A DNA stretch of 64,000 bases, taken from positions 147-64,146 of the forward strand of contig JACOUE010000034.1 of NCBI GenBank assembly GCA_016178045.1, given 5' to 3'. The notes beneath the pieces were generated by a model. It searched no databases and was not told the DNA's origin. It saw nothing but the letters and a program-made list of their open reading frames with translations. This document shows positions 3,001 to 50,257 of this stretch, piece after piece. The position numbers and the translations under genes are program-made. Each line of letters opens with the position of its first letter. Positions within the stretch are counted from its first letter, which is position 1. This DNA comes from Chloroflexota bacterium (GTDB taxonomy: Bacteria > Chloroflexota > Dehalococcoidia > SM23-28-2 > JACOUE01).

Positions 3001-3901
3001 GCGTGAAGGTCTGTCCGCCGTCGAGGCTGAGCTCAGTGAATACGTCGAAGAAGGACTGGGCGGGGAAGAACTGGCCGCCGGTCTCCGGCGAGGTCACGGT
3101 TCCGGTGGAAGGCTGAGACGGGCTCTCGATGATTACGATGGGATCAACGCTCATGAGCTGCATGGCGACGATCTCGACGTCGATTCTGTCGGGGACGCCG
3201 CTGCTGTTGGTGTCCTGAGGGTCGCCGCGGAGAATGGCGACCGGCCCCGCCAGTTGCAGGCCGAGAGCGGTAGCGCTGGAGGGGAAGATGTCCAGGCCGG
3301 CGGGGGGCAGGGCGCCGCCGCTCTCGAACGGCGACAGCGGCGGCATGGCGCAGCCGGGGTCGATCTCGTCCACGACCCCGTCGAGGTCGTTGTCGCTTCC
3401 GTCGGCGCAGGTGTTGGGGATGGGGATGGAGGGGAACTGGGTGCTGGGCTGTACGGCCATGTGCTCCGGCGTGGAGGCGGGGTTGGACGGGTTGGAGCCC
3501 AGGGCCGACTCGATATCGTTGTACCAGCCGTCGCAGTCAGCATCGAGGGAGGGTGGGAAGCTGGGGCTGGCCGGACAGGGCGTGGGGGTGGGCGTGGTCG
3601 TCGGGGTAGGCGTGGCAGTGGGGACGGGCGTGGCGGTGGCGGTAGGAGTCGCGGTAGCCGTGGCGGTGGCGGTAGGAGTCGCGGTAGCCGTGGCCGTAGC
3701 TGTGGGTGTGGCGGTGGCCGTGGGCGTGGTTGTAGGCGAGGCAATGGCGGTAGGTGTCGCCGTGGGCGTAGCGGTGGCGGAGTCGATGGCGAGGAAGCCG
3801 CCGGGGCCGCCGGCCTGGGCCCACTGGGCGATGAGAAGCGCAGTGAAGGCCGCCGCGGCAGCGACCGGCAATAACCCCAGGGCGATGAGGCCTCTCTTCA
3901 C
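1..3901 (-). CDS. Secreted subtilisin-like (S8) serine peptidase; C-terminus runs off the window start (absent from the ORF track because it is edge-truncated)
   Basis: Hand translation of the minus strand from GTG 3901 (GGAGGAGG 8 nt upstream). VKRGLIALGLLPVAAAAAFTALL signal/anchor, T/P/A linker, then catalytic triad motifs VAVFDTGAD, GHGTHVAG, SGTSMAAPHVSG. The frame stays open to position 1. Confidence 0.9.
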   Translation of the reverse strand, partial: MKRGLIALGLLPVAAAAAFTALLIAQWAQAGGPGGFLAIDSATATPTATPTAIASPTTTPTATATPTATATATATPTATATATATPTATATPVPTATPTPTTTPTPTPCPASPSFPPSLDADCDGWYNDIESALGSNPSNPASTPEHMAVQPSTQFPSIPIPNTCADGSDNDLDGVVDEIDPGCAMPPLSPFESGGALPPAGLDIFPSSATALGLQLAGPVAILRGDPQDTNSSGVPDRIDVEIVAMQLMSVDPIVIIESPSQPSTGTVTSPETGGQFFPAQSFFDVFTELSLDGGQTFTPREDLMQNPQVNCLPPVVFPEPCQGFVPEQFCYKNPDATISHCPEWPLPPFVPSELTVKFRPEASSGEIDDLIAACATERKLDSTSMIEAAEGSPQAVGSLPPEVASLARSVFWLGITDPAKSVRETASCFQDHPDIVEFAEPNFTGSPGDHRSDHYPNDLDGNQWSLLNAGQKDPKDTVGRGGNIGTIDADIDAVQAWDLPLTDCSGVVVAVFDTGADLDHPDLDDNLWTNPGEVAGNGIDDDGNFFIDDVHGFDFTQAAFSLIPLGIRDTGGDGPEDTLPDAMGGGHGTHVAGIIGAEGNNGRDIAGICWTARLMIMRIGDPGTLDSRVFFSALYTVIQKFVFGQNVRVINMSYWGWPMLQNDLLASAYGLTNAGDILFSKIAGNAGRDLDLAANREYPCDSPERTPNVICVAASNNRDTLWADSNYGAVSVDLAAPGENILSLYLAGKTAVLSGTSMAAPHVSGIAALAFALFPAKTALDVKSDILADAVGPPAFSGVDVVKTTDPRTIFGKVKSNGRLRWPYTGDLGDAPPGYDTVASQGGALHWDYGNEFFGDDATPEVDANIGPDQDILLNIVPNPDQDFADEPRAPGNGSFVFDPPPAWPPGANVQVDYEVCSDYLEILDADGGRYQGGNPDRAIYVNAWFDLLDPIGAFTRDELLLEDIISPPVAPPPPPKLGPNVTVNLRPVLPAPAAAPVFPPPKRCVSISSSFVVPAPGGTPKQVRFRLDYGEDISANDPNPVFRPDMNIKANEFTGWARYGEVEDFVVPTLDHFKCYQIANPVPVGVPVILEDQFDSQSGTIEARTVDEPIRFCNSVKKTDAAGITTPSHPNNHLKLYILTPPEPAPTRSVVVDNQFGLQTITTFDPFILAVPTQKEPHPPPSNLDHFKCYRATGDPANRIVDLIDQFHTEPGVQIFEPFLFCNPTLKSAGGVITPILNPEDHLVCYRISIIPFAVTGVITHNQFGDEDLTVFDADTLCVPSEKISVTVQTATPTATA
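3581..3783 (-). repeat. Thr/Pro/Ala linker-coding low-complexity repeat inside the S8 gene, with a perfect 30-bp tandem duplication
   Basis: 3631-3660 and 3661-3690 are both tggcggtggcggtaggagtcgcggtagccg. Translated on the minus strand this gives [15 protein letters not shown]-type repeats. Confidence 0.9.
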
Positions 3902-4157: not shown

Positions 4158-4481
4158 TTAGCGGTAATCCTCGCGGGGTGGGGAAAAGACGTCGATGAAG
4201 ACGCTGCGCTCGAGGGCGGTGACCTCGTGGGGGACGCCGGAAGGGACGAGCCAGCAGTCGCCGGGGGAGAGGTCGCGCGTCTCTTCGCCGAGGCGGAAGC
4301 GGCCGCGGCCGGAGATGAGGTAGCCGGTCTGCTCGTGAGGGTGAGTGTGGAGGGGGACGACGGCGCCCCGGTCCATGGTCACCTCGATGAGCATGAGGCG
4401 CTCGCCATCGGTCATGGTGCGCCGAAAGACGCCGGGGAGCATCTCGACAGGGGTGGCGGCGTCGCGGGACGTGAGGGGCAT
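4158..4481 (-). CDS. Cupin domain protein
   Basis: 107 aa with cupin motifs (PLHTHPHEQTGYLISG ... PSGVPHEV). GGGGAGG SD 6 nt upstream of the ATG. Confidence 0.8.
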   Translation of the reverse strand: MPLTSRDAATPVEMLPGVFRRTMTDGERLMLIEVTMDRGAVVPLHTHPHEQTGYLISGRGRFRLGEETRDLSPGDCWLVPSGVPHEVTALERSVFIDVFSPPREDYR

Positions 4482-4493
4482 GGCGTACCTCCC

Positions 4494-4829
4494 CTAGGAG
4501 CGAAGGTCGATATCAACGAAGGCGACGTTGCGGGGCACGGCGTCGTGGTCGTGGGGGGTGACGAGAACGCCGTGATTGCGCTTCTCCCCCTGGATCACCC
4601 AGTCGAGCTGGTAGAAGCGCTCGACGACGGAGGGGTCGTCGGCCTCGTAGACGGTGACCAGGAGCCCGTCGCCGTCCTTCGTCACCTCATCGGAGACGAA
4701 GGAGACGACGCGGCGGAAGCCTAAGGCCTTGAGGGCCTCGCGGCCAGCCTCGAACCCCTGCTTGAGCTGCCGGGCGAACTCTTCCCGCTTTCCGGGCAGG
4801 ATCCTGGCGACGTGGACGCAGGCGACCAT
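4494..4829 (-). CDS. Hypothetical small alpha/beta protein (function unknown)
   Basis: 111-aa ORF with GC3-rich codon usage. AAAGGATGG SD upstream of the ATG; packed tightly between the cupin gene and purE. Confidence 0.65.
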   Translation of the reverse strand: MVACVHVARILPGKREEFARQLKQGFEAGREALKALGFRRVVSFVSDEVTKDGDGLLVTVYEADDPSVVERFYQLDWVIQGEKRNHGVLVTPHDHDAVPRNVAFVDIDLRS

Positions 4830-4844
4830 GGTCGACCATCCTTT

Positions 4845-5297
4845 CTACGTGCCGGCCTGTTCCTCACGATAGTTTGCGAGGGCGTCTCGGACCGGCTCGT
4901 GCTTGAGGGCGAGGACGGCGGCGGCGTAGAGGGCGGCGTTGCGGGCGCCGTTGACGGCCATGCAGGCCACAGGGACGCCCGGAGGCATCTGGGCGATGGC
5001 GAGGAGGGAGTCCAGCCCGCCCATGCCCGACTTGCCGATGGGCACGCCGATGACGGGCAGGGCGGACCAGGCGGCGACGATGCCGGGCAGGTGGGCGGCC
5101 ATGCCGGCGGCGGCGATGATCACCTCGAAGCCGCGGGAGGGGGCGTCCAGGGCGAACTGGCGCACGCTGTCGGGCGTGCGGTGGGCGGAGATGACGTGGG
5201 TCTCGTGGGAGATGCCCAGCCGCTCGAGGGTGTTGGAGCACTCCTCCATGACGTCCAGGTCAGACTTGGAGCCGAGGATGATGGCGACGAGGGGCAC
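4845..5297 (-). CDS. purE: N5-carboxyaminoimidazole ribonucleotide mutase
   Basis: VAIILGSKSDLDVM ... ISAHRTP ... IIAAAGMAAHLPG ... PVIGVP: classic PurE blocks. GTG start. Confidence 0.95.
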   Translation of the reverse strand: MPLVAIILGSKSDLDVMEECSNTLERLGISHETHVISAHRTPDSVRQFALDAPSRGFEVIIAAAGMAAHLPGIVAAWSALPVIGVPIGKSGMGGLDSLLAIAQMPPGVPVACMAVNGARNAALYAAAVLALKHEPVRDALANYREEQAGT

Positions 5298-23508: not shown

Positions 23509-24399
23509 ATGAGCGGAGCCTCCGCGCCCGTCGTTATGGTCGATAGCTTCAAGTTCCTGCCTGCCGCCCTGGCCGGCTACTACCAGAGCCTCCCGGTCCA
23601 GCGTGAGGAGCCGATCCCATGGGCCCCGCTGGCCAAGCCCCTCAGCGAGTGCCGGTTCGCTCTGGTCACCACGGCCGGGGTGTACGCTAAAGGGCTGGAG
23701 CCGCCTTTCGACACGGAGCGGGAGGAGAAGGAGCCTCTGTGGGGCGACCCGACATATCGTCGCATCCCCAGCGACATAACGCAAGACCGGGTCGGGGCTT
23801 CACACCTCCACATCAACAACCGGGACATCCTCGCCGACATCAACGTCGTGCTGCCCCTCGGCCGGTTTCTGGAGCTGGAGGAGGAGGGCGTTATCGGTTC
23901 CCTGGCGCAGACTCACTACTCGTTCATGGGGTACCAGATGGACACGCGGGCCTGGCGGGAGCAGTACGGGCCGGAGGTAGCGGGCCTCCTGAAGGACGAG
24001 GGCGCTGACTGCGTGTTCCTGACCCCGGCCTGACCGGACTGCTGCCGCACCGTGCCGGTGCTGGCGCGGACCTTCGAGGGAGCGGGCCTGAGCACCGTTC
24101 TGGTGACGATGATGCCGTACTGGGCCGACCGGGTGGGCGTGCCGCGGACGGTGGGGGTGGAGTTCCCCTACGGCCATCCCCTGGGGATGCCGGACGACCG
24201 CGAGACGCAGATGCGCGTCATACGGGAGGCGCTGACGCTGCTGGAGGAGGCGGAGGGCCCGGGCGAGAGCCGCAACCTGGACCTCGTCTGGCCGCAGGAT
24301 CCGGACACTGCGAAACGCGACTGGCAGCCGCCGGTGCCCTCGCCCATCATCCGGATGCTGCGGGAGCGGGCGCGGGGCCGGCGGGAGGCCGCGGGCTGA
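23509..24399 (+). CDS. GrdB/PrdB-family (glycine/sarcosine/betaine/D-proline reductase component B-like) selenoprotein; TGA 24031-24033 read as selenocysteine
   Basis: Track ORFs 23509-24033 and 24052-24399 share a frame. The junction reads FLTPA-U-PDCCRTVPVLARTFEGAGLSTVLV. The family block DINVVLPLGRFLELEEEGVIGSLA..YSFMGY lies upstream. Confidence 0.75.
24043..24066 (+). promoter_or_regulatory. Candidate SECIS hairpin
   Basis: tgcc-gcacc-GTGCC-ggtgc-t-ggcg: a 9-bp stem with one bulged U and a GU-containing apical loop, starting 10 nt after the TGA. Confidence 0.5.
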
Positions 24400-24420
24400 C
24401 GGCAGGAGGAGCTTCGTCAA

Positions 24421-25703
<1,283 letters not shown>

Positions 25704-25716
<13 letters not shown>

Positions 25717-38476: not shown

Positions 38477-39142
38477 TTACTCCCCGGTGTCTGCACCCTC
38501 GGCTTGGGTCTCCACAGGCTCCTGGGTGGAGGCTTCAGGCTCTGTCGACTCTGCTGGCTCGGGTTCGGTCTCGGTGGGTTCCGGCTCCTCGCTTTCCGCC
38601 GCAGGCTCTTCCGCCGCCTCTTCTGCGGCGGCCTCCGCGTCGGCCGGCTCTTCGCTCACCGCGGCCTGCGCCTCCCCGGCAGGGGCTTCCGGCGGCGCTC
38701 CGGCCTCGGCGGCCGTCTCGACGGCGGCTGCGGCTCCAGGCTCAGCGGCGGCTTCGGCGGCCGGCGCCTCCGCTTTCGCCGCGGGCGGCGCCTCCTCCGC
38801 CACGGCCACGGCGGGGGCGGCCTTCGCCTTCTTCGGCTTCGCCTTGGCGGTGCCGATCTTGTCCCGGTGCTTGGTATAGACGAAGGGCGGCCGGCCCGCT
38901 TTCTCCATGATGCTGGCCCGGGTCAGGAGCTTGGCCGCCGCCTCCGAAGGCTGGGCGCCGTTCTGGAGCCAGTGGACAGCCCGCTCCTCGTTCACGCTGA
39001 GCTGCGGCGGGTCCGTCAGGGGGTTGTAGTGGCCGATGATCTCGACGAAGGCGCCGTCACGGGGCGACCGCGAGTCGGCCACCAGAAGGCGGTAGGCGGG
39101 TTGCTTCTTCTTGCCTACCCTGGAGAGACGGATACGTAGCAA
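38477..39142 (-). CDS. rpsP: 30S ribosomal protein S16 with a long Ala/Glu/Pro-rich C-terminal extension
   Basis: TTG start with GGGAGGTG SD. (M)LRIRLSRVGKKKQPAYRLLVADSRSPRDGAFVEIIGHYNP, followed by about 130 aa of low-complexity tail. Confidence 0.9.
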   Translation of the reverse strand: MLRIRLSRVGKKKQPAYRLLVADSRSPRDGAFVEIIGHYNPLTDPPQLSVNEERAVHWLQNGAQPSEAAAKLLTRASIMEKAGRPPFVYTKHRDKIGTAKAKPKKAKAAPAVAVAEEAPPAAKAEAPAAEAAAEPGAAAAVETAAEAGAPPEAPAGEAQAAVSEEPADAEAAAEEAAEEPAAESEEPEPTETEPEPAESTEPEASTQEPVETQAEGADTGE

Positions 39143-39173: not shown

Positions 39174-40505
39174 TCACATCCGCAACAGCGGACTTATCTT
39201 CTGGCCGCGACCGGTGGTAAGCATCTGCATCATGCGCTTGGCTTCTCGGTACTGCTTGAGGAGACGGTTGATCTCGGCCGGCGTGGACCCGCTGCCTCGG
39301 GCGATGCGCCGACGGCGGCTGGCGTCGATGACCTCGGGGTGGCGGCGCTCGTACGGCGTCATCGAGTAGATGATAGCCTCCACCCGCTTGAAGAAGTTGT
39401 CGTCCAGCTCCTCAACGGCGAGGCGGTTCTTGATGGTGGAGAGGCCGGGTATCAGCCCGATGAGCTGGGGCATGGGGCCCATCCGCTTGACCCGCTGGAA
39501 CTGGACCAGGAAGTCCTCCAGCGTCAGCGCCCCCTTGCGCATGCGCTCCGTCAGGGACTCGACGTCTTCGTCCTCGAACTCCTCCTTCGCCTTCTCGATG
39601 AGGGTGAGGAGGTCGCCCATGCCGAGGATGCGGCTGGCGAAGCGTTCGGGGTAGAAGGGCTCGAGGGCGTCGGCCTTTTCGCCGGTGCCGACGAACTTGA
39701 CGGGGATGCCGGTGACGGCGCGGATGGAGAGGGCGGCGCCGCCGCGGGCATCGCCGTCGAGCTTGGTGAGGATGAGGCCGGTGAGGCCGACGGCGCCGTG
39801 GAAGGCCTCGGCGGCGTGGACGGCCTCCTGGCCGGTCATAGCATCCGCGACGAGGAGGACCTCCATAGGCGAGAGGGCCTTGCGGAGGGCGGCCAGCTCC
39901 GCCAGCTCCTCCTGGTCGAGGCGCAGATAGCCGACGGTATCGATCAGCACGGTCGAGGCGGAGATGCGCTTCGCCTCGGCAAGGGCGTCCTTGCACACGT
40001 CCTCCGGCTTCGCCTTGCCTTCGCGGGCGACGACCGGGATGTCGAGCTGCTTGCCCAGGGCGTCCAGCTGCTCGGCGGCGGCCACCCGCCTGGGGTCGGC
40101 CGAGGCCATGAGGGGCCGCTGGCCTTGGCGGCGGAGATGGAGGCCCAGCTTGGCGGTGGTGGTGGTCTTGCCGGAGCCTTTGAGGCCGACCAGCATGACG
40201 ATGGTGGGCGGCGCCTTCGCCTGCTCCAGGTGGGCCTGGCCGCCGCCCAGCATCTCGACCATCTCCTGGTTGACGATGTCGATGATCTGCTGGAGGGGGG
40301 TGAGGCTCTTGGTGATCTCGGCGCCGAGGGCGCGTTCCTTCAGCCGCTGGGTGAAGTCGCGCACCACCTTAAAGTGGACATCGGCCTCTAAAAGGGCGAG
40401 GCGCACCTCTCGTAGCGCCTCGTCCAGGTCCTTCTCGGTGATGGTGCCGCGACTACCGAGGCGGCGGAAGACGCCCTGGAGTTTGTCGGTGAGGGCTTCG
40501 AACAT
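39174..40505 (-). CDS. ffh: Signal recognition particle protein Ffh
   Basis: N domain, G domain (GLKGSGKTTTTAKL, DTVG, TKLDGDARGGAALS), Met-rich M domain. Confidence 0.95.
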   Translation of the reverse strand: MFEALTDKLQGVFRRLGSRGTITEKDLDEALREVRLALLEADVHFKVVRDFTQRLKERALGAEITKSLTPLQQIIDIVNQEMVEMLGGGQAHLEQAKAPPTIVMLVGLKGSGKTTTTAKLGLHLRRQGQRPLMASADPRRVAAAEQLDALGKQLDIPVVAREGKAKPEDVCKDALAEAKRISASTVLIDTVGYLRLDQEELAELAALRKALSPMEVLLVADAMTGQEAVHAAEAFHGAVGLTGLILTKLDGDARGGAALSIRAVTGIPVKFVGTGEKADALEPFYPERFASRILGMGDLLTLIEKAKEEFEDEDVESLTERMRKGALTLEDFLVQFQRVKRMGPMPQLIGLIPGLSTIKNRLAVEELDDNFFKRVEAIIYSMTPYERRHPEVIDASRRRRIARGSGSTPAEINRLLKQYREAKRMMQMLTTGRGQKISPLLRM

Positions 40506-40519
40506 AGTTACCGCAAGGG

Positions 40520-40548
40520 ATTGTATAGGGCGGCAATATACCCGTCAA
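40520..40548 (-). promoter_or_regulatory. Sigma70-type promoter giving a very short (~8 nt) ffh leader
   Basis: Minus strand: TTGACG-N17-TACAAT, then 14 nt to ATG 40505. No SD in between. Confidence 0.45.
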
Positions 40549-40589
40549 GGAAGCCGGTGAACCAGAGGGGGCGGCGGGCAGCTGCGCGG

Positions 40590-41150
40590 TCACAAGCGCT
40601 GGGACACTTCGCCATACAGCTCGTCTGTTTCCACATACATCAGGCTGCCGTTTTCCGGCGCTCCGTAGTCCTTGACCCACTTGACCAGCCCATCCTGGCC
40701 CACGAGCACAAATATGTGACCCGGCTCGCCGCCATGGGTCAGGGGAATGCCATATTTCTCTGACACCTCGCCACCGCGGTCGGAGAGATAGGTTGACAGA
40801 ATGCCAAAATCGGCCACGTCGTGGGCAAGATCGGACAAGGGATCAAGGGCGATGCTCACCAATTCGACGTCGAGGGCGTTGAACCTTTCGTCGCGCTCCA
40901 GGTCGACGACCTGTTCCTGACAGGGCGTTCAGCCGTACCCCATGCTGAAATACAGAAGAACGTTCTTGTTGCCGATAAAGTCGCTCAAAGAGACGGTTCC
41001 GCCGTCGATGGCAGGCAGGCGAAATTCGGGCGCCGGGTCACCCTCAGCTAGCGATAGCGCATCCTCCCCGGGGGCGCAGGCGACGGACAGAGTTACAGCC
41101 AGGATCCCAGCGGCGAGGACCAGAGACGATAGAACGACTGGGCGGCCCAT
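40590..41150 (-). CDS. TlpA/ResA-redoxin-like thiol:disulfide oxidoreductase lipoprotein; TGA 40929-40931 read as selenocysteine (U-T-P-C motif)
   Basis: Track ORFs 40929-41150 and 40590-40862 share a frame. Read-through gives ..NVLLYFSMGYG-U-TPCQEQVVDLERDERFNALDVELVSIALDP.., placing Sec at the first Cys of the thioredoxin-fold CxxC. Lipobox LSVAC at the N-terminus. Confidence 0.7.
40888..40913 (-). promoter_or_regulatory. Candidate SECIS region (two alternative hairpins)
   Basis: Minus strand UCGUCG-ACCUGGAGCG-CGACGA (6-bp stem, GG-containing loop) or the alternative CAGGUCG-U-CGACCUG, starting 15-22 nt after the UGA. Confidence 0.35.
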
Positions 41151-41209
41151 GATGAAATCCTATGCGGAGTTGCTCTCCCCCGCTGGCTCGCTCTGGCAGT
41201 CTCCAGAGC

Positions 41210-41431
41210 CTAGCCCTTGAGGTCCTCTTTCATGTGCAGAAACTCTTCGCGGCTGATTTCCCCGCGGGCGTAGCGCTCCTCTAGGAGACGGCTCGCGTCT
41301 CGCGAGGGGGAGAGGCGATTAATGGCCCACACGGCCAGGGCGATGATGGCCGCCCAGAAGGCCACGAAGGTGAATGACCAGAGGCCCATCATCGCCCACA
41401 TGGCGGGGTTCATTTGCATGTCCATGTGCAT
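41210..41431 (-). CDS. SHOCT-domain membrane protein
   Basis: Start trimmed to ATG 41431 (TGGAGG SD 6 nt upstream). TM, then LEERYARGEISREEFLHMKEDL. Confidence 0.75.
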   Translation of the reverse strand: MHMDMQMNPAMWAMMGLWSFTFVAFWAAIIALAVWAINRLSPSRDASRLLEERYARGEISREEFLHMKEDLKG

Positions 41432-41468
41432 GGGCGGCCTCCAAAATCGGAACGTGCGGGCAAGCATT

Positions 41469-41498
41469 AGTGTAAGCCGTCACGAATTTCCCTGTCAA
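41469..41498 (-). promoter_or_regulatory. Sigma70-type promoter for the SHOCT gene, overlapping a hairpin downstream of gap
   Basis: Minus strand: TTGACA-N18-TACACT. The -35 lies within the stem GTCAAAAC..GTTTTGAC (41494-41518). Confidence 0.4.
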
Positions 41499-42847: not shown

Positions 42848-43762
42848 CTATTTGGTGACCAGACTGTCGTAGACCTGAATGCCGGCCGGTCCCAGCAGGA
42901 CGATGAACAGCGAAGGGAGCAGGAACAGGACCAGCGGGAACGTCATCCAGATGGGTATTCGCTGGGCGGTCTGCTCCACGCGCTGGCGCCGCTTAATGCG
43001 GATCTGGTCCGACTGGACGCGCAGGACATCGGCGATGCTGGAGCCGGTGACCTCGGCATGGATGATAGCGTTGACGAAGGTGACGACCTCGGACACGCCG
43101 GTGCGCTCTCCCACGTCGAGCAGGGCGTCGCGGCGTGACTGGCCCATGGCCATCTCGCGCAGGGCCTGCCTCAGCTCGTCGCCGAAGGGGCCCGCCAGCT
43201 TCTCGGTCACCTTGGCGAAGGCGGCGTCCAGACCGAGGCCGGCCTCCACACAGGTGCTCACCAGGTCGAAGGCGTTGGGGAGGGACTTCAGGATTTCGTT
43301 CTGGCGCTTGCCCACGCGACGGGCGAGCCAGAAGTAGGGGAGGTAGAAGCCCAAGCCGATCAGCGCCAGGAGCACCATGAGGATGGTGGGGCTAAAGCTG
43401 GCCCCGGCCATGGCGACGAACGCCAGGAAGAAAGTAGGGAAGGCGAAGGCGCTAACTGCCATGACCATGAGGAAACCGGCCAGGGAAAACGGCTGTCCTG
43501 CCAGGGTGAGCAGGTGGCGGATCCGGGCCACGTATGCCGTCGGGAGCATCTTGGCCACGATGCTGCCCATACTTTCCAGCAAGGGCATGACGATGCGCTC
43601 CACGAACGGCTGCCCGCGGTCGATGACGACGTCATCGTCGAATGCGGAGGCGAGTCTCCTGACCCGCGCCTCCACCGGGTTCTGGCGGCTGCGGCCGGCG
43701 AAGGCCATGCAGACGCAGAACACGGCCGCGAATGTGATGAAGGCTGCTGCTCCTGCCAGCAT
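42848..43762 (-). CDS. tadC: Flp pilus assembly membrane protein TadC
   Basis: T2SSF-type polytopic protein, last gene of the operon. Confidence 0.8.
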   Translation of the reverse strand: MLAGAAAFITFAAVFCVCMAFAGRSRQNPVEARVRRLASAFDDDVVIDRGQPFVERIVMPLLESMGSIVAKMLPTAYVARIRHLLTLAGQPFSLAGFLMVMAVSAFAFPTFFLAFVAMAGASFSPTILMVLLALIGLGFYLPYFWLARRVGKRQNEILKSLPNAFDLVSTCVEAGLGLDAAFAKVTEKLAGPFGDELRQALREMAMGQSRRDALLDVGERTGVSEVVTFVNAIIHAEVTGSSIADVLRVQSDQIRIKRRQRVEQTAQRIPIWMTFPLVLFLLPSLFIVLLGPAGIQVYDSLVTK

Positions 43763-43771
43763 GATGTCCTC

Positions 43772-44719
43772 CTATACCTCGATAGCGGTAATGCGGCGCG
43801 TGATGTACAGCCCGGTTATGTTCAGCCCGGCGGCCAGAATGATGAGGAACCGGCCGACCCCGGTGGTGAAGAGGAGCCTCATGTACTCCGGGTCGGTCAG
43901 GTAGAAGAGGCCGACGACCAACAGGGGCATGAGCCCGACGATCCAACCGGACAGCCGCTTCTGGGCGGTGAGGGTGTTGATTTCGCCCTTGATGCGGATC
44001 CGCTCGCGGATGGTGTGGGCCACGTTGTCCAGCACCTCGGCCAGGTTGCTGCCGACGGCGCGCTGGATGAGGACGGCGGTGATCACCATGTCGAGATCGT
44101 AGCTGCCGACTCGCTCGCCCATGGCGATGATGGCGTCCTCGAGGGTGGCACCCATGTGGGTGTCGCGGATGAGGCGCTTGAGCTCCACGGATATGGGGGG
44201 CGGGATCTGCTCGGCCGCCAGGTCAAAGGCCTGCAAGAGGCCGAAGCCGGCTTTGAGGGAGCTGGACACCATGGTCAGCATCTCCTCGAGCTGGTCGTTG
44301 AGCTTGTTGATCTGCTGCTGGATGCGCATCCGCACGTAGAGAGGAGGCAGCATGAACCCCACGACTCCAAAGACTATGGCCAGCAGCGCGGCAAAGGCCG
44401 ACGTACCGACCAGGGCAAAGCCGACGATCATGAACGCTACCGCCATCAGGCCGCGCAGCGCCAGGTACTCGTGCAGCTTCAGGGCGACGCCGGCGCGGTC
44501 GAGGTCGCGCAGGGTCCGTTCGGCCCAAACGCTGCCCTGGCGGCGCAGGGCCAGAGGGACTCCGCCCTCAGTCTGCGCCCGCTGGCCGTAGGCCTGGAGC
44601 TGGTCCATGCGCTCCTGCGCCCGGGAACGGCCGCGCGCGGTAGCCTGGTAGAACCCGATAGTGACGAGCAGAACGGCGAGGAAAGCGCACCCCGCTGCTG
44701 CTATGTTTACCAAGTCCAT
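43772..44719 (-). CDS. tadB: Flp pilus assembly membrane protein TadB
   Basis: Start trimmed to ATG 44719 (AGGAGG SD; 4 nt after the cpaF stop). T2SSF-type. Confidence 0.8.
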   Translation of the reverse strand: MDLVNIAAAGCAFLAVLLVTIGFYQATARGRSRAQERMDQLQAYGQRAQTEGGVPLALRRQGSVWAERTLRDLDRAGVALKLHEYLALRGLMAVAFMIVGFALVGTSAFAALLAIVFGVVGFMLPPLYVRMRIQQQINKLNDQLEEMLTMVSSSLKAGFGLLQAFDLAAEQIPPPISVELKRLIRDTHMGATLEDAIIAMGERVGSYDLDMVITAVLIQRAVGSNLAEVLDNVAHTIRERIRIKGEINTLTAQKRLSGWIVGLMPLLVVGLFYLTDPEYMRLLFTTGVGRFLIILAAGLNITGLYITRRITAIEV

Positions 44720-44723
44720 GGCC

Positions 44724-46076
44724 TTACCTCCTGGCTCCGATGAATATGTCTTCGGGGAAGGTGATCCCCATCTCCTCCAGCCGCGACAGGAAGCGCGGCT
44801 GGATGCCCGTCGGCAGGGCCTCGCCCAGGACGCGGCCGTTGCTGTCGACGCCCTGATGCACGAAGCGAAAGAGCTCCTGCATGGTGACGATGGCGCCCTC
44901 CATGCCGGAGATCTCGCTGACGCTGATGATCTTGCGTGATCCATCGACGAAGCGGGCGAGCTGGATGACCAGGTGCAGGGCGGAAGCCATCTGCTCGCGG
45001 ATGGCCCGCACCGGCAGGTCGAATCCGGCCATGAGGATCATGTTCTCGGCACGCATGAGGGCGTCGCGAGGGGAGTTGGCGTGGACGGTGGTGAGGGAGC
45101 CTTCGTGGCCGGTGTTCATGGCCTGCATCATGTCGAAGGCCTCAGAGCCGCGCACCTCGCCCACGATGATGCGGTCGGGGCGCATGCGGAGGGCGTTGCG
45201 GACCAGGTCACGCTGCGTGACGTCGTGCTTGCCCTCCAGGTTCGCCGGCCTGGCCTCAAGGCTCACCACGTGAGGCTGCTGGAGCTTCAGCTCAGCCGGG
45301 TCCTCGATGGTGACGACACGCTCCGTGGGCGGGATGAACCCGGAGACGGCGTTGAGGAGTGTGGTCTTACCGGTACCGCTACCGCCGGAGATGAGGATGT
45401 TGAGGCGCCCCTTGACGCAGACGCTCAGGAACTCGCCCAGCTCCTCGCTCAGGGTGCCGGTGGCCATGAGGTCCTGGATTGTGTACTTGTCCGCGCGGAA
45501 CTTCCGGATGGTGATCGTGGGGCTCTTGGGGGCCACCGGAGGGATGATGATGTTGACCCGGGAGCCGTCGGCGAGACGGGCGTCGACGTAGGGCGAGGAC
45601 TCGTCCACGCGGCGGCCCAGCGGCGAGATGATCCGCTCGGCGACGCGCATGATGTGCCTGTGGTCGCGGAAGCGGAGGTTGCTGAGGTAGATGATGCCGT
45701 CCCGCTCGTAGTAGACGAGGTCGGGGGCGTTGACCATCACCTCGGAGAGTGAGGGGTCTCTGACCAGGCCCTCAATAGGGCCGAGGCCCAGGACCTCGTC
45801 CGCCACGTGGCCGACGATGGTGTCCCGCTCCAGCCCCACGACCTTGGGGGCCAGCTCCTGCATGATGGTGCGGGCGGCCTTCTCCACCGCCTCGCGGGCC
45901 TTGTCCGGCTCCAGCTTTTCGATGGCCGTGGCGTCCAGGTCCTCGATGAGTTTTTGGTGGATCTGGAAGACCAGTTCCCACTGGCTGTCGTCCAGGCCGT
46001 CGTTGTGCTGCTGCGGCTGGCCCTTGTCCCCGTTACCGGGGGTGTTGTCTGCGAACTTTTGCTGCCATGTAGCCAT
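44724..46076 (-). CDS. cpaF: Flp pilus assembly ATPase CpaF/TadA
   Basis: Walker [14 protein letters not shown], Asp box, Walker B (RIIVGEVRG), His box ([12 protein letters not shown]). Confidence 0.92.
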
Positions 46077-46101
46077 GACTTACCACCTTCCCTGCCGATT
46101 C

Positions 46102-47331
46102 CTACTGTCTGAAGATGAACTTCTTGAGCAGCCCCCCGCCGTTGTCTTCCACCCTGGCGGCAACGTGTTCCACGGGAACAGGCTCGTAGCCACTGAGGAC
46201 GGCGGCCAGCTCCTGGATGCTCTGGGCAGCGCGAGAGTCTGGCCGGTCGATGACGGCGGGGCTGCCGATCTGGGCGCTCTGGCCGATCTCCTCGTCGTGG
46301 GGGATGGACCAGAACACTTCCTGACGCAGGACCTTGCCGACGTCAGTATCCTTGACCGAGTTGACGTTGGTGGCGTGGTTGACCGTGAGCTTGATCTTCT
46401 CCTCGGAGTAAGATCCGTTGCTCAGCAGCTTCAGCGCCACCGTTGTGTCCTTGATGCTGGTGATGTCGAGGCTGGTGACGAGAAGGATGACCGTAGCCTT
46501 CTCCAGGGCCACGCCCACGAGGTCGGTGAAGGTGCCCGGTGTGTCGACGATGACGAAGTCGTGGGTCTGGGCTAGGAGCGAGAGGACCTTTTCCATGGAC
46601 TCCGGCGGGACGTTGCGCCAGTCCGTCGGCTCGAAGGGAGCGGGGAGGACGGCAACGCCGCAGGGGTGGTGGATCAGGTACTTGCTGATAGAATCGCGGT
46701 CCAGGTCCTCGATGTCCCGGGTGGCGTCGATGAGGCTGGTCTCCACCGGCAAGTCCATCATCATGGCGACGTCTCCGAAGATGGTGTCGCTGTCCACGAT
46801 GACGGAAGAGCCAACGCCCAGGGTCTGGAAGGCGGTGGCCAGGTTGATGGAGATAGTGGTCTTGCCGATGCCGCCCTTGGCCCCGAAGACGGTGACGATC
46901 ATGCCGCCCGTGCGCACGGGTGCCGGCTGCTCGCCGGTGAGGAGGGCGCGACGGCGCTCTTGCTGGGCCAGGCCCATCTCGACGGCCTTGATGACATCGT
47001 CGGTCTTGAGAGGCTTGGTGAGGTAGTCCCGGGCGCCGGCGATGACGGCGCGGCGGGCCGAGTCGGAGTCCGCGAGACTGGAGTAGGCTATGATCGCCGC
47101 CTCGGGGAGTATGCCCGTGAGCTGCTCGATGGTCTGAAGGGCGCGAGCAGTGGGCTCCTCGACGCAGATCAGGACCGCCTGGGGTTTGATCTCCGAGGCC
47201 AGGGAGAGCGCCTCCGCGCCATAGCCGACGCCACCGACGACGATGAATCGGCTCTTGGCCAGGCCCTTCTGGAGCTCGGCCCTGGTCTCGAAGTCCTGGT
47301 CGACTATTACGATCCTGGGGTTGCCTGCCAT
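46102..47331 (-). CDS. cpaE: CpaE/TadZ: atypical receiver domain fused to a MinD/ParA-type ATPase
   Basis: The N-terminal REC-like fold lacks the acceptor Asp (VLICVEEP). Deviant Walker A: FGAKGGIGKTT. Confidence 0.85.
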   Translation of the reverse strand: MAGNPRIVIVDQDFETRAELQKGLAKSRFIVVGGVGYGAEALSLASEIKPQAVLICVEEPTARALQTIEQLTGILPEAAIIAYSSLADSDSARRAVIAGARDYLTKPLKTDDVIKAVEMGLAQQERRRALLTGEQPAPVRTGGMIVTVFGAKGGIGKTTISINLATAFQTLGVGSSVIVDSDTIFGDVAMMMDLPVETSLIDATRDIEDLDRDSISKYLIHHPCGVAVLPAPFEPTDWRNVPPESMEKVLSLLAQTHDFVIVDTPGTFTDLVGVALEKATVILLVTSLDITSIKDTTVALKLLSNGSYSEEKIKLTVNHATNVNSVKDTDVGKVLRQEVFWSIPHDEEIGQSAQIGSPAVIDRPDSRAAQSIQELAAVLSGYEPVPVEHVAARVEDNGGGLLKKFIFRQ

Positions 47332-47367
47332 AGCTAGGTCACCTCATTCCTCTCCTGCCTTCATCAC

Positions 47368-48252
47368 CTATCGCACGTCCAGGGTCTTGTCGATGAGGGT
47401 GACGTGCCAGGGTGTGCGGACCTGCTCTTCCTCGCCGAAGGGACGAACGGTCAGGCGAAGGGCGCCGTACTGGTCAGCAAGGCTGAGGAGCTGGGCCTGC
47501 TGCGGCGTCACCTCGAGGGTGGCGGAAGCCGCGCTCGGCTCGGTGCCGGACGCAGGAGTCTCGGTCGTGCCTTCGACCGCGGCGTTCTGGTCGGTGACCG
47601 TCTGGGCCAGGCCGATGAGCCGCATGTCCTGGAACAGCGTGCCCGTCACGTTGTACACGCAGAGTTCGGTTGTGTTCGTGTCCTCGGCGAAGGTCGTGGT
47701 GGTGTTGCACGCGGGCACGTTGGCGGCGGCGCTGCCGCCGAAGGTGCTGAGGATGGAGCGCACGGAGTCAGGGCCGCCCACCTCGAAGACTGCCACTATG
47801 TCCACGTGGTCGCCCGGGCGGGCGTTGCCGCCGGTGATAACCACTTCCTGGACAGAGATGGAGACGGCGCGATGGCCCGGCTCCACGCGGAAGGCGAGGC
47901 CCTCGCCCGCTTGGTCGCTGACGACGGCGGGGCCGATGTGCTCGCCGGCCTTCACGTCCTGGGTGATCACCCGGTCGACGACCTGGCTGCGGGCGGTGAA
48001 GGCCTCAGGGTCCACCTTGTCGGTGGGCAGGAGCTGGACCTCCAGCATATCGGCGGTGACGCGGGTGTTGGCGGGGATGTCCCGCGCGGCGACTACCGTC
48101 GCCTGCTTGTCTGCGCCGCCACCGCTGCCGGCGGAGTTAACGGCGACGAAGACGAGGACGGCGGCGACGAGGCCCAGGAAGACCCCGAGATAGAGGACCA
48201 GCCGCTGCTGCCTCCCGAACGGGCGGGTCGCTGTGGTTCGACCTGCTGCCAT
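47368..48252 (-). CDS. cpaB: Flp pilus assembly protein CpaB/RcpC
   Basis: N-terminal TM (LVLYLGVFLGLVAAVLVFVAV), SAF-like region (VVAARDIPANTRVTADML), RcpC-like C-terminus. Confidence 0.75.
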   Translation of the reverse strand: MAAGRTTATRPFGRQQRLVLYLGVFLGLVAAVLVFVAVNSAGSGGGADKQATVVAARDIPANTRVTADMLEVQLLPTDKVDPEAFTARSQVVDRVITQDVKAGEHIGPAVVSDQAGEGLAFRVEPGHRAVSISVQEVVITGGNARPGDHVDIVAVFEVGGPDSVRSILSTFGGSAAANVPACNTTTTFAEDTNTTELCVYNVTGTLFQDMRLIGLAQTVTDQNAAVEGTTETPASGTEPSAASATLEVTPQQAQLLSLADQYGALRLTVRPFGEEEQVRTPWHVTLIDKTLDVR

Positions 48253-48305
48253 TTCTACCTACCTCCTTTTTGGTTTTTCTTTTGGCTGTCTTTTGGTTTG
48301 TTCGC

Positions 48306-49481
48306 TTATTCCACCAGGGCCACGATCGTCGGTCCGAAGGCGTTCTGCGGTCCTCCGACTCCCGCCACGAACTGCCAGGCGGGCGTGGCCACGAGTTCGT
48401 CCTGTATCAGGTAGCCCCAGACCATGCCGTTGTCGGGGTCACCGTCGGCGTCGCCGTCGCCCCATTTCGGCGCGCGGTCCCAGGCGGCGATGTAGAAGTT
48501 GTCGATGGCGTAGATCTCGACGTCGCCGCTGGAGCCCTGGGGCGGGAAGTCCTTGATAACGGCGATGGGAACCAGCCGGGCCGGGGCGCAGCTCCCCTTG
48601 GCCAGCTGCCGAGCCTGGTCGTAGGTGCTGGCGTCGCAGGGGGTGTAGGGGCCGGTGCCGAAGTATCGCTCGTCCCGCGCGTTGAGGGCGGTGGCGGTGT
48701 TGCGCCCCAGCTCACCGGTCTGGGCCGGGCAGCTGAGGGTCTTGCCGAACTCGACGGTCTGCGAACCCGAGTCGCATGCGTCTTGGTCCCTACTGCCGCA
48801 TTCGTTGATGATGGCGTCACGGTAGTCGTTCGTGTTGGAGCCGTAGATGCCCAGGGCGCCGAAGTTGCCGGAGCTGCCGTCTTCGCCGGCGAAGTCGCCC
48901 TTGGCGCTGAGCTGGAAGATGAAGAGCTTGCCGTCGTCGGGGGGGTCGCCCAGGACCCCGAAGTGGGTGTCGGTAGCGAAAGCGTCCTCCGTCACGGCGT
49001 CGATAGCCCAGGGCATGAGGCAGGCGCCGCTGGACCGCACCTTGGCGGCGGCGGCCGTGGCGCCGATGGAGGGATTGCCGATGTTGAACACCTGGGCGAC
49101 GAAGCTGTTGCTTTCGCGCTCAACCCTGGCGCGGATGAGGTCCATCTTGCCGTCGCCGTTGAGGTCCTCAAAGCAGAAGTCGTTGATAAGGCTGCCGCTG
49201 CAGGGCGGCGCGGTGATCTGGTCCAGGGAGACGCCGTTCTTTACGGCCCAGTCCTCAGCCTCCGTAACGGCGGCGGAGGTGTCGGGCAGTTCCTGGGCGC
49301 CGGCCAGAGCCACGGCGTCCGCCTGGTTCTGGGCCGAGCGCCGGTCACGCAGCCAGTAGGCCACGTCCGCGGTCAGCATGAGGGCGCCGAGGCCCACAAT
49401 GATAAGGAGCAGAGCCATGATCCACATCTGGCCGCGTTCGCTGCGATGAACGTCGCGGATAATTCCAAAGATTGTGTGCAT
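48306..49481 (-). CDS. tadG: TadG-like pilus-associated protein (Tad_N/TadE-G-like N-terminus)
   Basis: Start set to ATG 49481, overlapping the tadE stop (TAATG). MWIMALLLIIVGLGALMLTADVAYWL, then a large extracellular domain. Confidence 0.7.
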   Translation of the reverse strand: MHTIFGIIRDVHRSERGQMWIMALLLIIVGLGALMLTADVAYWLRDRRSAQNQADAVALAGAQELPDTSAAVTEAEDWAVKNGVSLDQITAPPCSGSLINDFCFEDLNGDGKMDLIRARVERESNSFVAQVFNIGNPSIGATAAAAKVRSSGACLMPWAIDAVTEDAFATDTHFGVLGDPPDDGKLFIFQLSAKGDFAGEDGSSGNFGALGIYGSNTNDYRDAIINECGSRDQDACDSGSQTVEFGKTLSCPAQTGELGRNTATALNARDERYFGTGPYTPCDASTYDQARQLAKGSCAPARLVPIAVIKDFPPQGSSGDVEIYAIDNFYIAAWDRAPKWGDGDADGDPDNGMVWGYLIQDELVATPAWQFVAGVGGPQNAFGPTIVALVE

Positions 49482-49972
49482 TAGTTGCACCCCCCTACCC
49501 CGTCACCACCGGTGTCTGACACCGTCAGCTCCAATCGCATGTCGCTACAGGCGTTGAAGGTTATCGCGTCGAAGGTTATAGACAGGAACACGCCCAGCGG
49601 CGTTATGAGGTTGTAGTTGTGGGAAGCGTGCACCGTCACGGAGTCGCCGCGGTCGCGGAGAGTGCTGTTGGTGTCCGGGCCGTCGGCGTAGGTGACGGTG
49701 ACCGAGGAGTCCGGGTCACCGGCAGCCAGGATGCCAGCGGAGCGGTCGTAGGCTGTGTCCTTGATCTGGGTGTAGCTAGCGCCGACAGCGCCCACACGGG
49801 CGGCTTCGCGGGCGGCGTTGGTGATGATGATCCAGCGGCTAATGCCAACCCCGAAGTCGATGACCAGGAAGAGCACGATGAGGAAGACAGGCAGGAGAAG
49901 TGCGAACTCCACCATGGACTGTCCGCGCTCGCCTTTTTGTCCCTTTCTGGCTGTCCGATTTAGCAGCTTCAT
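49481..49972 (-). CDS. tadE: TadE-like pseudopilin
   Basis: GQSMVEFALLLPVFLIVLFLVIDFG TadE motif. Confidence 0.8.
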   Translation of the reverse strand: MKLLNRTARKGQKGERGQSMVEFALLLPVFLIVLFLVIDFGVGISRWIIITNAAREAARVGAVGASYTQIKDTAYDRSAGILAAGDPDSSVTVTYADGPDTNSTLRDRGDSVTVHASHNYNLITPLGVFLSITFDAITFNACSDMRLELTVSDTGGDGVGGCN

Positions 49973-50257
49973 TGTTTACTCACCCTTCCTGGGGTTTTTC
50001 GGTAGCTGGGGCGAGTTCCCCGGGGTCCTCGCCCCAGCCACCGCTGTTTTCGCCCTAGGACGTGCCGTTCGCTTGCCTCACAAGCTTTGCGTTCCTCACA
50101 AAGCACTCGTTATCCCGGATCGTCCCGGCGCCGCCGCGGTCAGGGTTTGGGCTCTGCTGTCCCGCGCCCTGGCCCGGCACGGCCCGCCGCGAGGCTACGG
50201 CTCTTGGTCCTTCACCCCGCTCCGGTCCGCTGCGCTCGGGTGTTCCCATGCTTGTCT

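Follow-up and report, generated by a model that had tools for sequence, protein, structure and literature searches.

The window examined here, a 64,000-nucleotide stretch of contig JACOUE010000034.1 (assembly GCA_016178045.1) from a Chloroflexota bacterium of the Dehalococcoidia, carries on its minus strand, at 40590-41150, a redoxin gene that is interrupted in frame by a TGA at codon 74. We propose that this is a selenoprotein gene and place the probability of the whole explanation at roughly 0.85: the product would be a lipoprotein of AhpC/TSA fold, the UGA would be decoded as selenocysteine (Sec) with a hairpin of the selenocysteine insertion sequence (SECIS) type behind it, and the chemistry would be disulfide exchange between Sec74 and Cys77.

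The gene, its reading frame and its relatives

The minus-strand open reading frames (ORFs) 40929-41150 (73 aa, from an ATG) and 40590-40862 (90 aa, from a TTG) lie in a common frame, and between them stand the TGA at 40929-40931 and then 22 sense codons (40863-40928). An earlier reading made from the letters alone, here called the sequence-only reading, had described this arrangement, and its coordinates and frame were borne out, as was the sequence that it gave around U; the read-through product is ...NVLLYFSMGYG-U-TPCQEQVVDLERDE... Frame inspection disclosed no other stop and no frameshift inside 40590-41150. When the stop is replaced by Cys, the Pfam model AhpC-TSA (PF00578) matches residues 37-158 unbroken over codon 74 with 67.4 bits (cut-off, 26 bits; E 1.5e-18), and Redoxin (PF08534) matches the read-through product with an E of 5.7e-14. 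The AhpC/TSA match spans the junction and the fold comparison given below agrees with it, so that the downstream half is homologous to the C-terminal half of this fold; a lack of such homology had been named by the sequence-only reading as a ground for rejection. These data show 40590-41150 to be one gene, not two, with the following elements:

40590..41150, minus strand: putative complete selenoprotein gene, AhpC/TSA-fold redoxin lipoprotein with U74-x-x-C77 (sequence, frame, Pfam match across the TGA, same architecture in 80/80 homologous loci)
40590-40592, minus strand: terminal stop TGA of the gene, whose length is 186 codons
40929..40931, minus strand: UGA codon 74, putatively read as selenocysteine, at the N-terminal Cys position of CxxC (TGA in 80/80 loci and in L081, L085 and L166; Cys in P0102-P0165)
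40920..40922, minus strand: Cys77 codon (TGT), predicted resolving partner in U-T-P-C (sequence; codon table of the relatives)

The G+C content of the window is 65.8%. TGA is the ordinary stop of ffh, gap and the genes for a GH1 glucosidase, an MFS transporter, a solute-binding protein and a GAF histidine kinase; at least seven Pfam-verified window genes terminate in it, and therefore the genetic code is standard.

A scan of species-representative genomes gave 195 related stretches, and the best 80 were taken (L001-L080). These loci come from metagenome-assembled genomes (MAGs) labelled Chloroflexota (mostly Anaerolineales) or Actinomycetota, with a few odd labels, and the best redoxin match to the window protein in the species-representative genomes reached 54%. 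The tblastn matches in the 80 loci start from residues 1-40, pass over codon 74 and extend to residues 178-186, and the homologous codon is TGA in all 80, never TAA, TAG, TGC or TGT; it is also TGA in three further loci fetched separately (L081, L085 and L166). A TGA in every related locus, with coding conserved on both sides, is an observation far beyond chance. Separate genes or frameshifts in relatives, which the sequence-only reading had named as grounds for rejecting it, were not seen. Its other suggestion, to look for TGC or TGT at this codon in close relatives, had a divided outcome: none occurs in the 80 family loci, and in the close Ffh relatives the same locus is without the redoxin. 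The codon three positions past the TGA was tabulated in 68 of the 80 loci, where it is TGC in 57, TGT in 9 and TGA in 2 (L003 and L006); the other 12, judged from translation, have Cys. The motif is accordingly UxxC in 78/80 and UxxU in 2/80 of the genome loci, and UxxU is found additionally in L085. In L003, L006 and L085 the TGA thus occurs twice, three residues apart, and both Sec residues would share one downstream hairpin.

It had been expected that gene callers would miss the gene, and in fact, of the 90 homologues that a search of proteins gave at E <= 1e-5, 88 cover only the part past the motif, at most 58% of the query. The 24 post-motif homologues that were aligned all begin within a few residues past the CxxC position, the pattern left when gene callers stop at a conserved upstream TGA. 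Neither of the other two, P0001 (taken up below) and P0002, which look full-length, is a Cys form. P0002 (L082:968-1528) has an in-frame deletion of 9 nt that removes TGA-x-x (GPG-CMQQ), such that a single Cys is left and the hairpin sequence is retained; this may be a natural variant that has lost Sec, or it may stem from the assembly. As to the contigs themselves, L032 and L033 are identical gene copies in opposite orientation on one 39.8 kb contig (DASWJQ010000060.1, 4898-17353 and 22470-34925), either a large inverted duplication or an assembly artefact. The contigs L008 (JAIWHF010000120.1, 'Methanosarcinales archaeon', coverage 0.35) and L109 (JAJFMR010000348.1, 'Rhizobiaceae bacterium') carry genes that look like those of Anaerolineales/Chloroflexota and are probably binning contaminants.

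Homologues with Cys in place of Sec were sought by an exhaustive profile search over 1.84 billion representative proteins, which gave 632 matches at E <= 1e-3. The best eleven are all fragments, ten beginning just past the motif and one shorter still. From about 104 bits down the matches are full-length proteins of 190-280 residues that have G-[IL]-x-C-x-x-C-[WL]-x-Q at the UxxC columns and a related ...PGHTF... motif; CxxC stands at these columns in P0102, P0103, P0107, P0112 and others. Over 182 residues P0103 and the window protein share 43% identity, and the TGA is faced by a Cys of P0103. On the metagenomic contig L166 (1283-2525), a Sec form (U-P-P-C, TGA at 1577) is followed directly by the Cys form P0103 (C-Q-A-C); these tandem paralogues are 52% identical, and the hairpin is retained in the Sec copy. 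The Cys homologues with CxxC at the same columns, together with the tandem pair, argue that the window TGA takes the place of the first Cys in a CxxC redox motif, as the sequence-only reading had proposed. The clade itself seems to have near-universal Sec use and almost no close Cys orthologues.

The downstream hairpin and probable selenocysteine use

Around the TGA, 81 sequences (the window and L001-L080) stack without gaps, and positions are counted here from the U of UGA as 0. The family hairpin occupies positions 17-33, with the consensus GCAG[A/G]UC-GUN-GA[U/C]CUGC over the 81 sequences. Its stem has 6 bp in the window and 7 bp in most relatives, and the loop G and U are invariant throughout. 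The hairpin measures 15-17 nt and starts 14-15 nt past the TGA. In the window, the UGA is separated by 15 nt from the stem and by 21 nt from the loop.

40899..40913, minus strand: predicted SECIS-type hairpin CAGGUC-GUC-GACCUG, six pairs, loop GUC (-8.3 kcal/mol; family covariation)
Hairpin pair at positions 21-29: A-U in 51 sequences, G-C in 30, broken in 0
Hairpin pair at positions 20-30: G-C in 77 sequences, A-U in 4, broken in 0

The two pairs are perfectly compensated, with 34 double changes and none broken. Position 29 is the synonymous third base of an Asp codon (GAU/GAC) and faces the A/G of Ile/Val, whereas positions 20 and 30 are both synonymous sites (Gln CAG/CAA with Leu CUG/UUG); as the compensations involve synonymous sites, protein constraint alone is insufficient to explain them. 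Paired cells amount to 93.6%, against 17-38% when the 3' arm is slid, and 0 of 500 shuffles match the observed pairing or covariation score. The inner five pairs were predicted independently by RNAalifold. In the Cys paralogue P0103, the same QQIVDL peptide is encoded, but AUC with GAC gives an A-C mismatch that is unseen in the 81 Sec forms.

The published bSECIS model has a loop of 3-9 nt, a stem of 4-16 bp, a G in the first two loop positions (G[G/U]), 16-37 nt from UGA to loop and a minimum free energy (MFE) of -7.5 kcal/mol or lower (PMC13188914). The window hairpin, with its C-GUC-G loop, 6 bp, 21 nt and -8.3 kcal/mol, lies within all of these values. Hairpins downstream of the TGA had been noted before: the conserved one, the second and smaller of two, starting 15 nt after it, held up, but one directly after the TGA, seen in the MFE fold of 76 nt, is absent from the relatives and was ruled out as a SECIS.

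The window holds a second gene with an in-frame TGA:

23509-24399, plus strand: PrdB/GrdB-family selenoprotein gene (predicted), in-frame TGA at 24031-24033, ...VFLTPA-U-PDCC...

The D-proline reductase PrdB model TIGR04483 runs across the TGA of this gene with 162.9 bits, below its cut-off of 300, which bears out the earlier view of a genuine GrdB-like gene; Pfam GRDB has a match at 4.7e-12, and 24 nt past the UGA there is a hairpin whose loop is GUGC. Two predicted TGA-containing genes of selenoprotein families in one 64 kb window suggest that the organism uses selenocysteine. The nearest relatives of the window Ffh are in Chloroflexota/Dehalococcoidia MAGs, at 74-64% identity, and the Dehalococcoidia are reported to include genomes with 46-49 selenoprotein genes (PMC13326102). 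The PrdB/GrdB-like gene is followed in the same frame by a GH1 beta-glucosidase gene at 24400-25716.

The protein, its known likenesses and its genomic context

The predicted product has three further elements of interest:

41076..41150, minus strand: predicted signal peptide and lipobox (MGRPVVLSSLVLAAGILAVTLSVA-C25, then APGE), Cys25 codon TGC at 41076-41078 (from the sequence pattern only)
40677..41042, minus strand: AhpC/TSA (thioredoxin-fold) domain, residues 37-158 (PF00578, PF08534, homologue model)
40716..40718, minus strand: His145 codon, in the invariant G-E-P-G-H-[TI]-F motif, candidate third active-site residue (invariant in the family alignment)

The lipoprotein signal claimed earlier is present in the window protein and conserved in the relatives: inspection by eye shows a hydrophobic stretch, then small-small-Cys and a Gly/Ser-rich sequence, in nearly all of the 81 N-termini, and a strict regular expression finds 48. 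Export as a lipoprotein is therefore predicted. The structure modelled was that of P0001, a homologue 59% identical to the window protein; its AlphaFold2 model has a pLDDT of 85.6 and a pTM of 0.81. Foldseek placed BCP/PrxQ, AhpE and ResA about equally close to it (target-normalised TM 0.75-0.80), the best matches being BCP/PrxQ and AhpE with E values of 1e-10 to 1e-8. A profile search of the PDB with the C-terminal 114 columns did not discriminate among Prx, ResA and Sco (BsSco, E 0.27). When the sequence is aligned with 2-Cys peroxiredoxins, U74 stands opposite their conserved Thr, C77 opposite the peroxidatic Cys and the invariant H145 opposite the conserved Arg, and the peroxiredoxin signature is thus lacking. 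The dyad conforms to the CxxC type of thioredoxin and ResA, its exposed first position being taken by the predicted Sec. Among NCBIfam models the best was thiol peroxidase (40.6 bits, cut-off 140), then the SelL-related model (34.6 against 120), ResA (NF002854; 34.6 against 170) and PrxU (25.4 against 270), and Pfam SCO1-SenC (PF02630) gave no match at E <= 0.01 on the read-through product. Of the earlier label 'redoxin/TlpA-like', the redoxin part stands through the AhpC/TSA fold and PF00578, but, in view of the ResA score, the term 'TlpA-like' can stand only for an analogy of function.

The 'Prx-like thiol:disulfide oxidoreductase' (PF00578, UxxC/UxxU) is a selenoprotein family predicted by Kryukov and Gladyshev (2004), as listed in PMC13188914 and PMC9312934; selenoproteins are classified by domain and Sec motif (PMC9312934; PMC13188914), and Prx-like selenoprotein subfamilies have been distinguished (PMC2398784). 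By this domain-plus-motif definition (PF00578 and UxxC), the window gene, as predicted, is a Prx-like thiol:disulfide oxidoreductase selenoprotein. It has in common with that family the AhpC/TSA domain, Sec first in UxxC, the occasional UxxU of some relatives, a SECIS directly downstream of the UGA and a function that is predicted. The window clade differs in being a lipoprotein of Chloroflexota/Actinomycetota, often with a partner of the SHOCT-domain type, in its scarcity of close Cys orthologues and in its own signature (GEPGH[TI]F, DYGAP and MYV, to which W158 is added among the clade-specific conserved residues). Near-universal Sec, the lipoprotein anchor, the motifs, the SHOCT partner and the copper-related neighbours described below seem to be clade-specific. 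The representative of the Prx-like family is WP_010940744.1, a Geobacter protein, and HEU0032618.1 and MBA3499694.1 also figure in the literature as representatives of 'Prx-like' and 'Redoxin family' selenoproteins. No paper came to light that connects a selenoprotein like this one with SHOCT proteins or with copper.

Other known systems share some of these properties. Like ResA, TlpA and CcmG, the window protein is predicted to be exported and membrane-anchored, with a thioredoxin fold and the dyad at a helix N-terminus; ResA structures match the P0001 model at a target-normalised TM of about 0.8. A CcdA neighbour, lacking in the window, occurs in 9/81 loci. The window protein differs from them in its low ResA score, in having no W before the dyad and Sec for Cys, and in the absence of ResB/ResC linkage. 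ResA is not known to have a counterpart of His145. BCP/PrxQ and AhpE are the best Foldseek matches and belong to the same Pfam family, but the window protein is without the PxxxTxxC and Arg signature of these proteins and of PrxU, having U for Thr and H for Arg, and its NCBIfam scores are below the cut-offs. With Sco1/SenC it shares a peroxiredoxin-like thioredoxin fold, a predicted place on the outer side of the membrane and copper-related neighbours, and, by motif comparison, it may also have two chalcogen ligands near a helix N-terminus and a His just before the central strand; it differs in having UxxC and not CxxxC, no PF02630 match and only the weak BsSco match given above.

Upstream of the redoxin gene, the window has the following features:

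41210..41467, minus strand: SHOCT-domain small membrane protein, 85 residues, Met/His-rich N-terminus (MHMDMQM...), Pfam SHOCT 2.8e-07; the start may be the ATG at 41431
41469..41498, minus strand: sigma-70-like promoter match, TTGACA-18-TACACT, before the SHOCT-redoxin pair (consensus match only)

The SHOCT and redoxin genes are probably co-transcribed. A second sigma-70-like match lies at 40520-40548, before ffh, so that the region has 2 matches where 0.4 are expected. In relatives chosen by Ffh (64-76% identity) the order of gap, ffh and rpsP agrees with that of the window, and none has the redoxin or the SHOCT gene; in L087, L088, L091 and L096-L098 the identities are 56-69% for Ffh and 58-76% for GAPDH. 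In most of the Ffh relatives where gap was found, gap and ffh are nearly adjacent. The SHOCT-redoxin pair (40590-41498) therefore has the look of an insertion of two genes between gap and ffh in this lineage, self-contained and with its own promoter-like site.

Neighbours within 4.5 kb were clustered over the 81 loci and checked with Pfam. A SHOCT protein occurs in 32/81 loci, and in 11 loci its gene is on the same strand and ends within 1.5 kb upstream of the TGA, mostly at about 200-300 nt. The other neighbours are a hybrid histidine kinase/response regulator (28/81), a CsoR-type metal repressor and an ABC exporter (11/81 each), a CcdA/DsbD membrane electron carrier (the 9/81 already given, and none in the window), CopC/CopD and Met-rich cytochromes c (8/81 each), a cation diffusion facilitator (5/81), ArsR and cytochrome oxidase subunit I (4/81 each) and CopZ (3/81). 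At least one copper-themed neighbour is found in 27/81 loci. A C-terminal cytochrome c domain is present in some homologues (L085, P0023, P0026, P0035 and P0091); in L085:3360-4316, a lipoprotein selenoredoxin with U-P-P-U and two TGAs is fused to a C-terminal cytochrome c (CQSCH), with a TlpA-like thioredoxin-fold gene upstream (2731-3339) and a Sco-like gene downstream (4385-4990, CTDVCP and HT). By motif comparison with the latter, His145 may be equivalent to the copper-ligand His of Sco. The Cys homologue P0141 (L167:872-5071) lies between two cupredoxin-domain genes and near a YHS-domain gene, with a two-component system close by. Taken as a whole, the context points to a possible role in the cell envelope, in copper or metal handling and respiratory-chain maturation.

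Elsewhere in the window, the product of rpsP (ribosomal protein S16; 38477-39142, minus strand) is extended at its C-terminus by about 130 residues, in which Ala, Glu and Pro abound, and 42848-49975 of the minus strand holds a Tad/Flp-type pilus cluster with T2SSF, a T2SSE ATPase, a ParA-like response regulator, RcpC/CpaB and TadE/G-like proteins (Pfam).

Weighing the readings, and what the gene may do

A number of observations weigh against a selenoprotein with the function proposed. The 64-kb window is without selA, selB, selD or tRNA-Sec: Pfam found no SelA, SelB or SelD domain in the 29 window ORFs outside the two selenoprotein genes, and neither ARAGORN nor Rfam found a tRNA-Sec in the window. 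A SelD tblastn with an approximate E. coli query gave no match, either in the window or across 834 kb of related loci, which is a weak negative. As to the hairpin, shuffled sequences fold as well as the 76 nt that follow the TGA (z = -0.24, for a single sequence in a G+C-rich context), and Rfam gave no match in 40500-41250 at E <= 10 and only tRNAs in the whole window at gathering scores. It is moreover short and overlaps the strongly conserved peptide QQ[IV]VDL, such that its conservation is in part protein constraint, and the Cys homologue P0141 keeps a hairpin-compatible sequence, so that the control with Cys homologues is suggestive only. The neighbourhoods are heterogeneous, no single neighbour being present in more than 40% of loci. 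Finally, no NCBIfam model reached its cut-off, and the function is one that we infer.

Could the TGA be the scar of a dead gene? One base change turns a Cys codon into TGA, and the lack of Sec machinery in the window would fit a redoxin that is dead or decaying; yet the same TGA stands in 80/80 loci of different species and two phyla, with intact frames and residues conserved on both sides, the hairpin covaries, and other stops and frameshifts are lacking, so that we regard a pseudogene as extremely improbable. Nor do we give much more credit to two products, a 73-residue lipopeptide and an independent C-terminal protein made from downstream, although both halves are annotated separately in the databases and many homologues have, directly after the Cys of the CxxC position, a Met (C-M-Q-Q) that gene callers take as the start. 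In the window this residue is Gln and the first start codon 3' of Cys77 is 22 codons on, within the fold; among the tabulated loci, some 35-40% have Leu, Ile, Val or Asn there instead of Met. A single Pfam domain and a single predicted fold cross the junction, each half being half a thioredoxin fold, and the Cys homologues are single chains, all of which makes separate products very improbable. Another residue, such as Trp, Cys or Gly, might be inserted through a suppressor tRNA or a changed genetic code, for which P0001 (L081:380-964), seemingly a Trp homologue, would be a precedent. Its DNA has TGA, however, and the JGI record, translated with code 4, reads as W both the TGA at the Sec codon and that of the true stop, adding a false C-terminal extension of 17 residues; P0001 was rejected as an annotation artefact. 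The use of TGA as a stop in at least seven window genes also speaks against such readthrough, as does its occurrence solely at the catalytic Cys position with a SECIS-type hairpin after it. The lineages known to recode TGA are unlike this genome of 66% G+C. We therefore judge readthrough without Sec to be highly unlikely.

If the UGA is read as Sec, the question is what the protein does, and here disulfide/selenenylsulfide exchange would rank first, with peroxidase activity and Sco-like copper handling as live alternatives. An envelope selenol peroxidase, in which Sec74 attacks the peroxide, Cys77 resolves and the fused forms draw on cytochrome c electrons, would agree with the nearest solved folds (BCP/PrxQ, AhpE), with thiol peroxidase as the best NCBIfam match and with the C-terminal cytochrome c domain of some homologues. 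The signature of such enzymes is lacking, with Sec for the conserved Thr and His for the conserved Arg, the thiol peroxidase and PrxU scores are far from their cut-offs, and the ResA fold is an equally good match; we hold this function to be possible but rather unlikely. A metal role is about as doubtful: Sec74, Cys77 and His145 would form a Sco-like Cu(I)/Cu(II) site, in a copper chaperone or in the repair of copper-damaged thiols, together with the SHOCT protein. The copper-themed neighbours in a third of the loci, CsoR, CopC/CopD, CopZ and the Met-rich cytochromes c among them, agree with this, as do the two cupredoxins and the YHS protein around P0141, the cytochrome c fusion between TlpA-like and Sco-like genes in L085, and the invariant His in ...GHTFVLVD.DG..., which resembles the Sco ...HT....ID..G... 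On the other side, Pfam SCO1-SenC does not match, the motif is UxxC and not CxxxC, there are no copper genes near the window gene and most loci are without a copper neighbour, and the equivalence of the His to that of Sco is argued from motifs and not from a measured structure.

For the selenoprotein with disulfide-exchange chemistry, we envisage the following course. The ribosome would decode the UGA at 40929-40931 as selenocysteine, the hairpin 15 nt downstream recruiting SelB with its Sec-tRNA(Sec), as its conserved and covarying structure suggests; the lipoprotein signal, judging from the lipobox, would lead to export and anchoring on the outer side of the membrane. There, Sec74 would be the exposed nucleophile and form a selenenylsulfide (Se-S) bond with the resolving Cys77. 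With Sec74 at the nucleophilic first position of CxxC and Cys77 as resolving partner, the most likely chemistry is selenol/thiol-disulfide exchange, as in an envelope reductase of the TlpA/ResA type with Sec for Cys. The invariant His145 probably adjoins the active site, and re-reduction would probably come from a CcdA/DsbD-type membrane electron carrier such as that found near the gene in some relatives. The two-gene unit suggests cooperation with the SHOCT membrane protein, and the relatives' neighbours suggest a role in envelope redox or copper-stress handling, the most uncertain part of this scheme.

In nearly every public record (NCBI, JGI, ENA) this subfamily is either split or entered as a 'peroxiredoxin family protein' of 113-114 residues, and a dedicated family model would mend hundreds of annotations and raise the selenoproteome counts of Chloroflexota and Actinomycetota. 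The family is also an unusually clean natural case of a minimal 17-nt SECIS maintained by compensatory changes at synonymous sites. The value of the window gene is practical for annotation and, as a functional lead, modest: the repeated association with SHOCT and copper genes can be put to the test, in a class of selenoproteins of which hardly any has an assigned role. It is a tentative idea, to which we give only a small chance, that a distinct, almost always Sec-containing envelope clade, present in about 200 species-level genomes of Chloroflexota and Actinomycetota and missed by current annotation models, uses Sec-x-x-Cys and the invariant His to work on copper, by Sco-like binding or by mending envelope thiols that copper has damaged, together with the Met/His-rich SHOCT protein; if true, it would be a selenium-dependent component of copper homeostasis.

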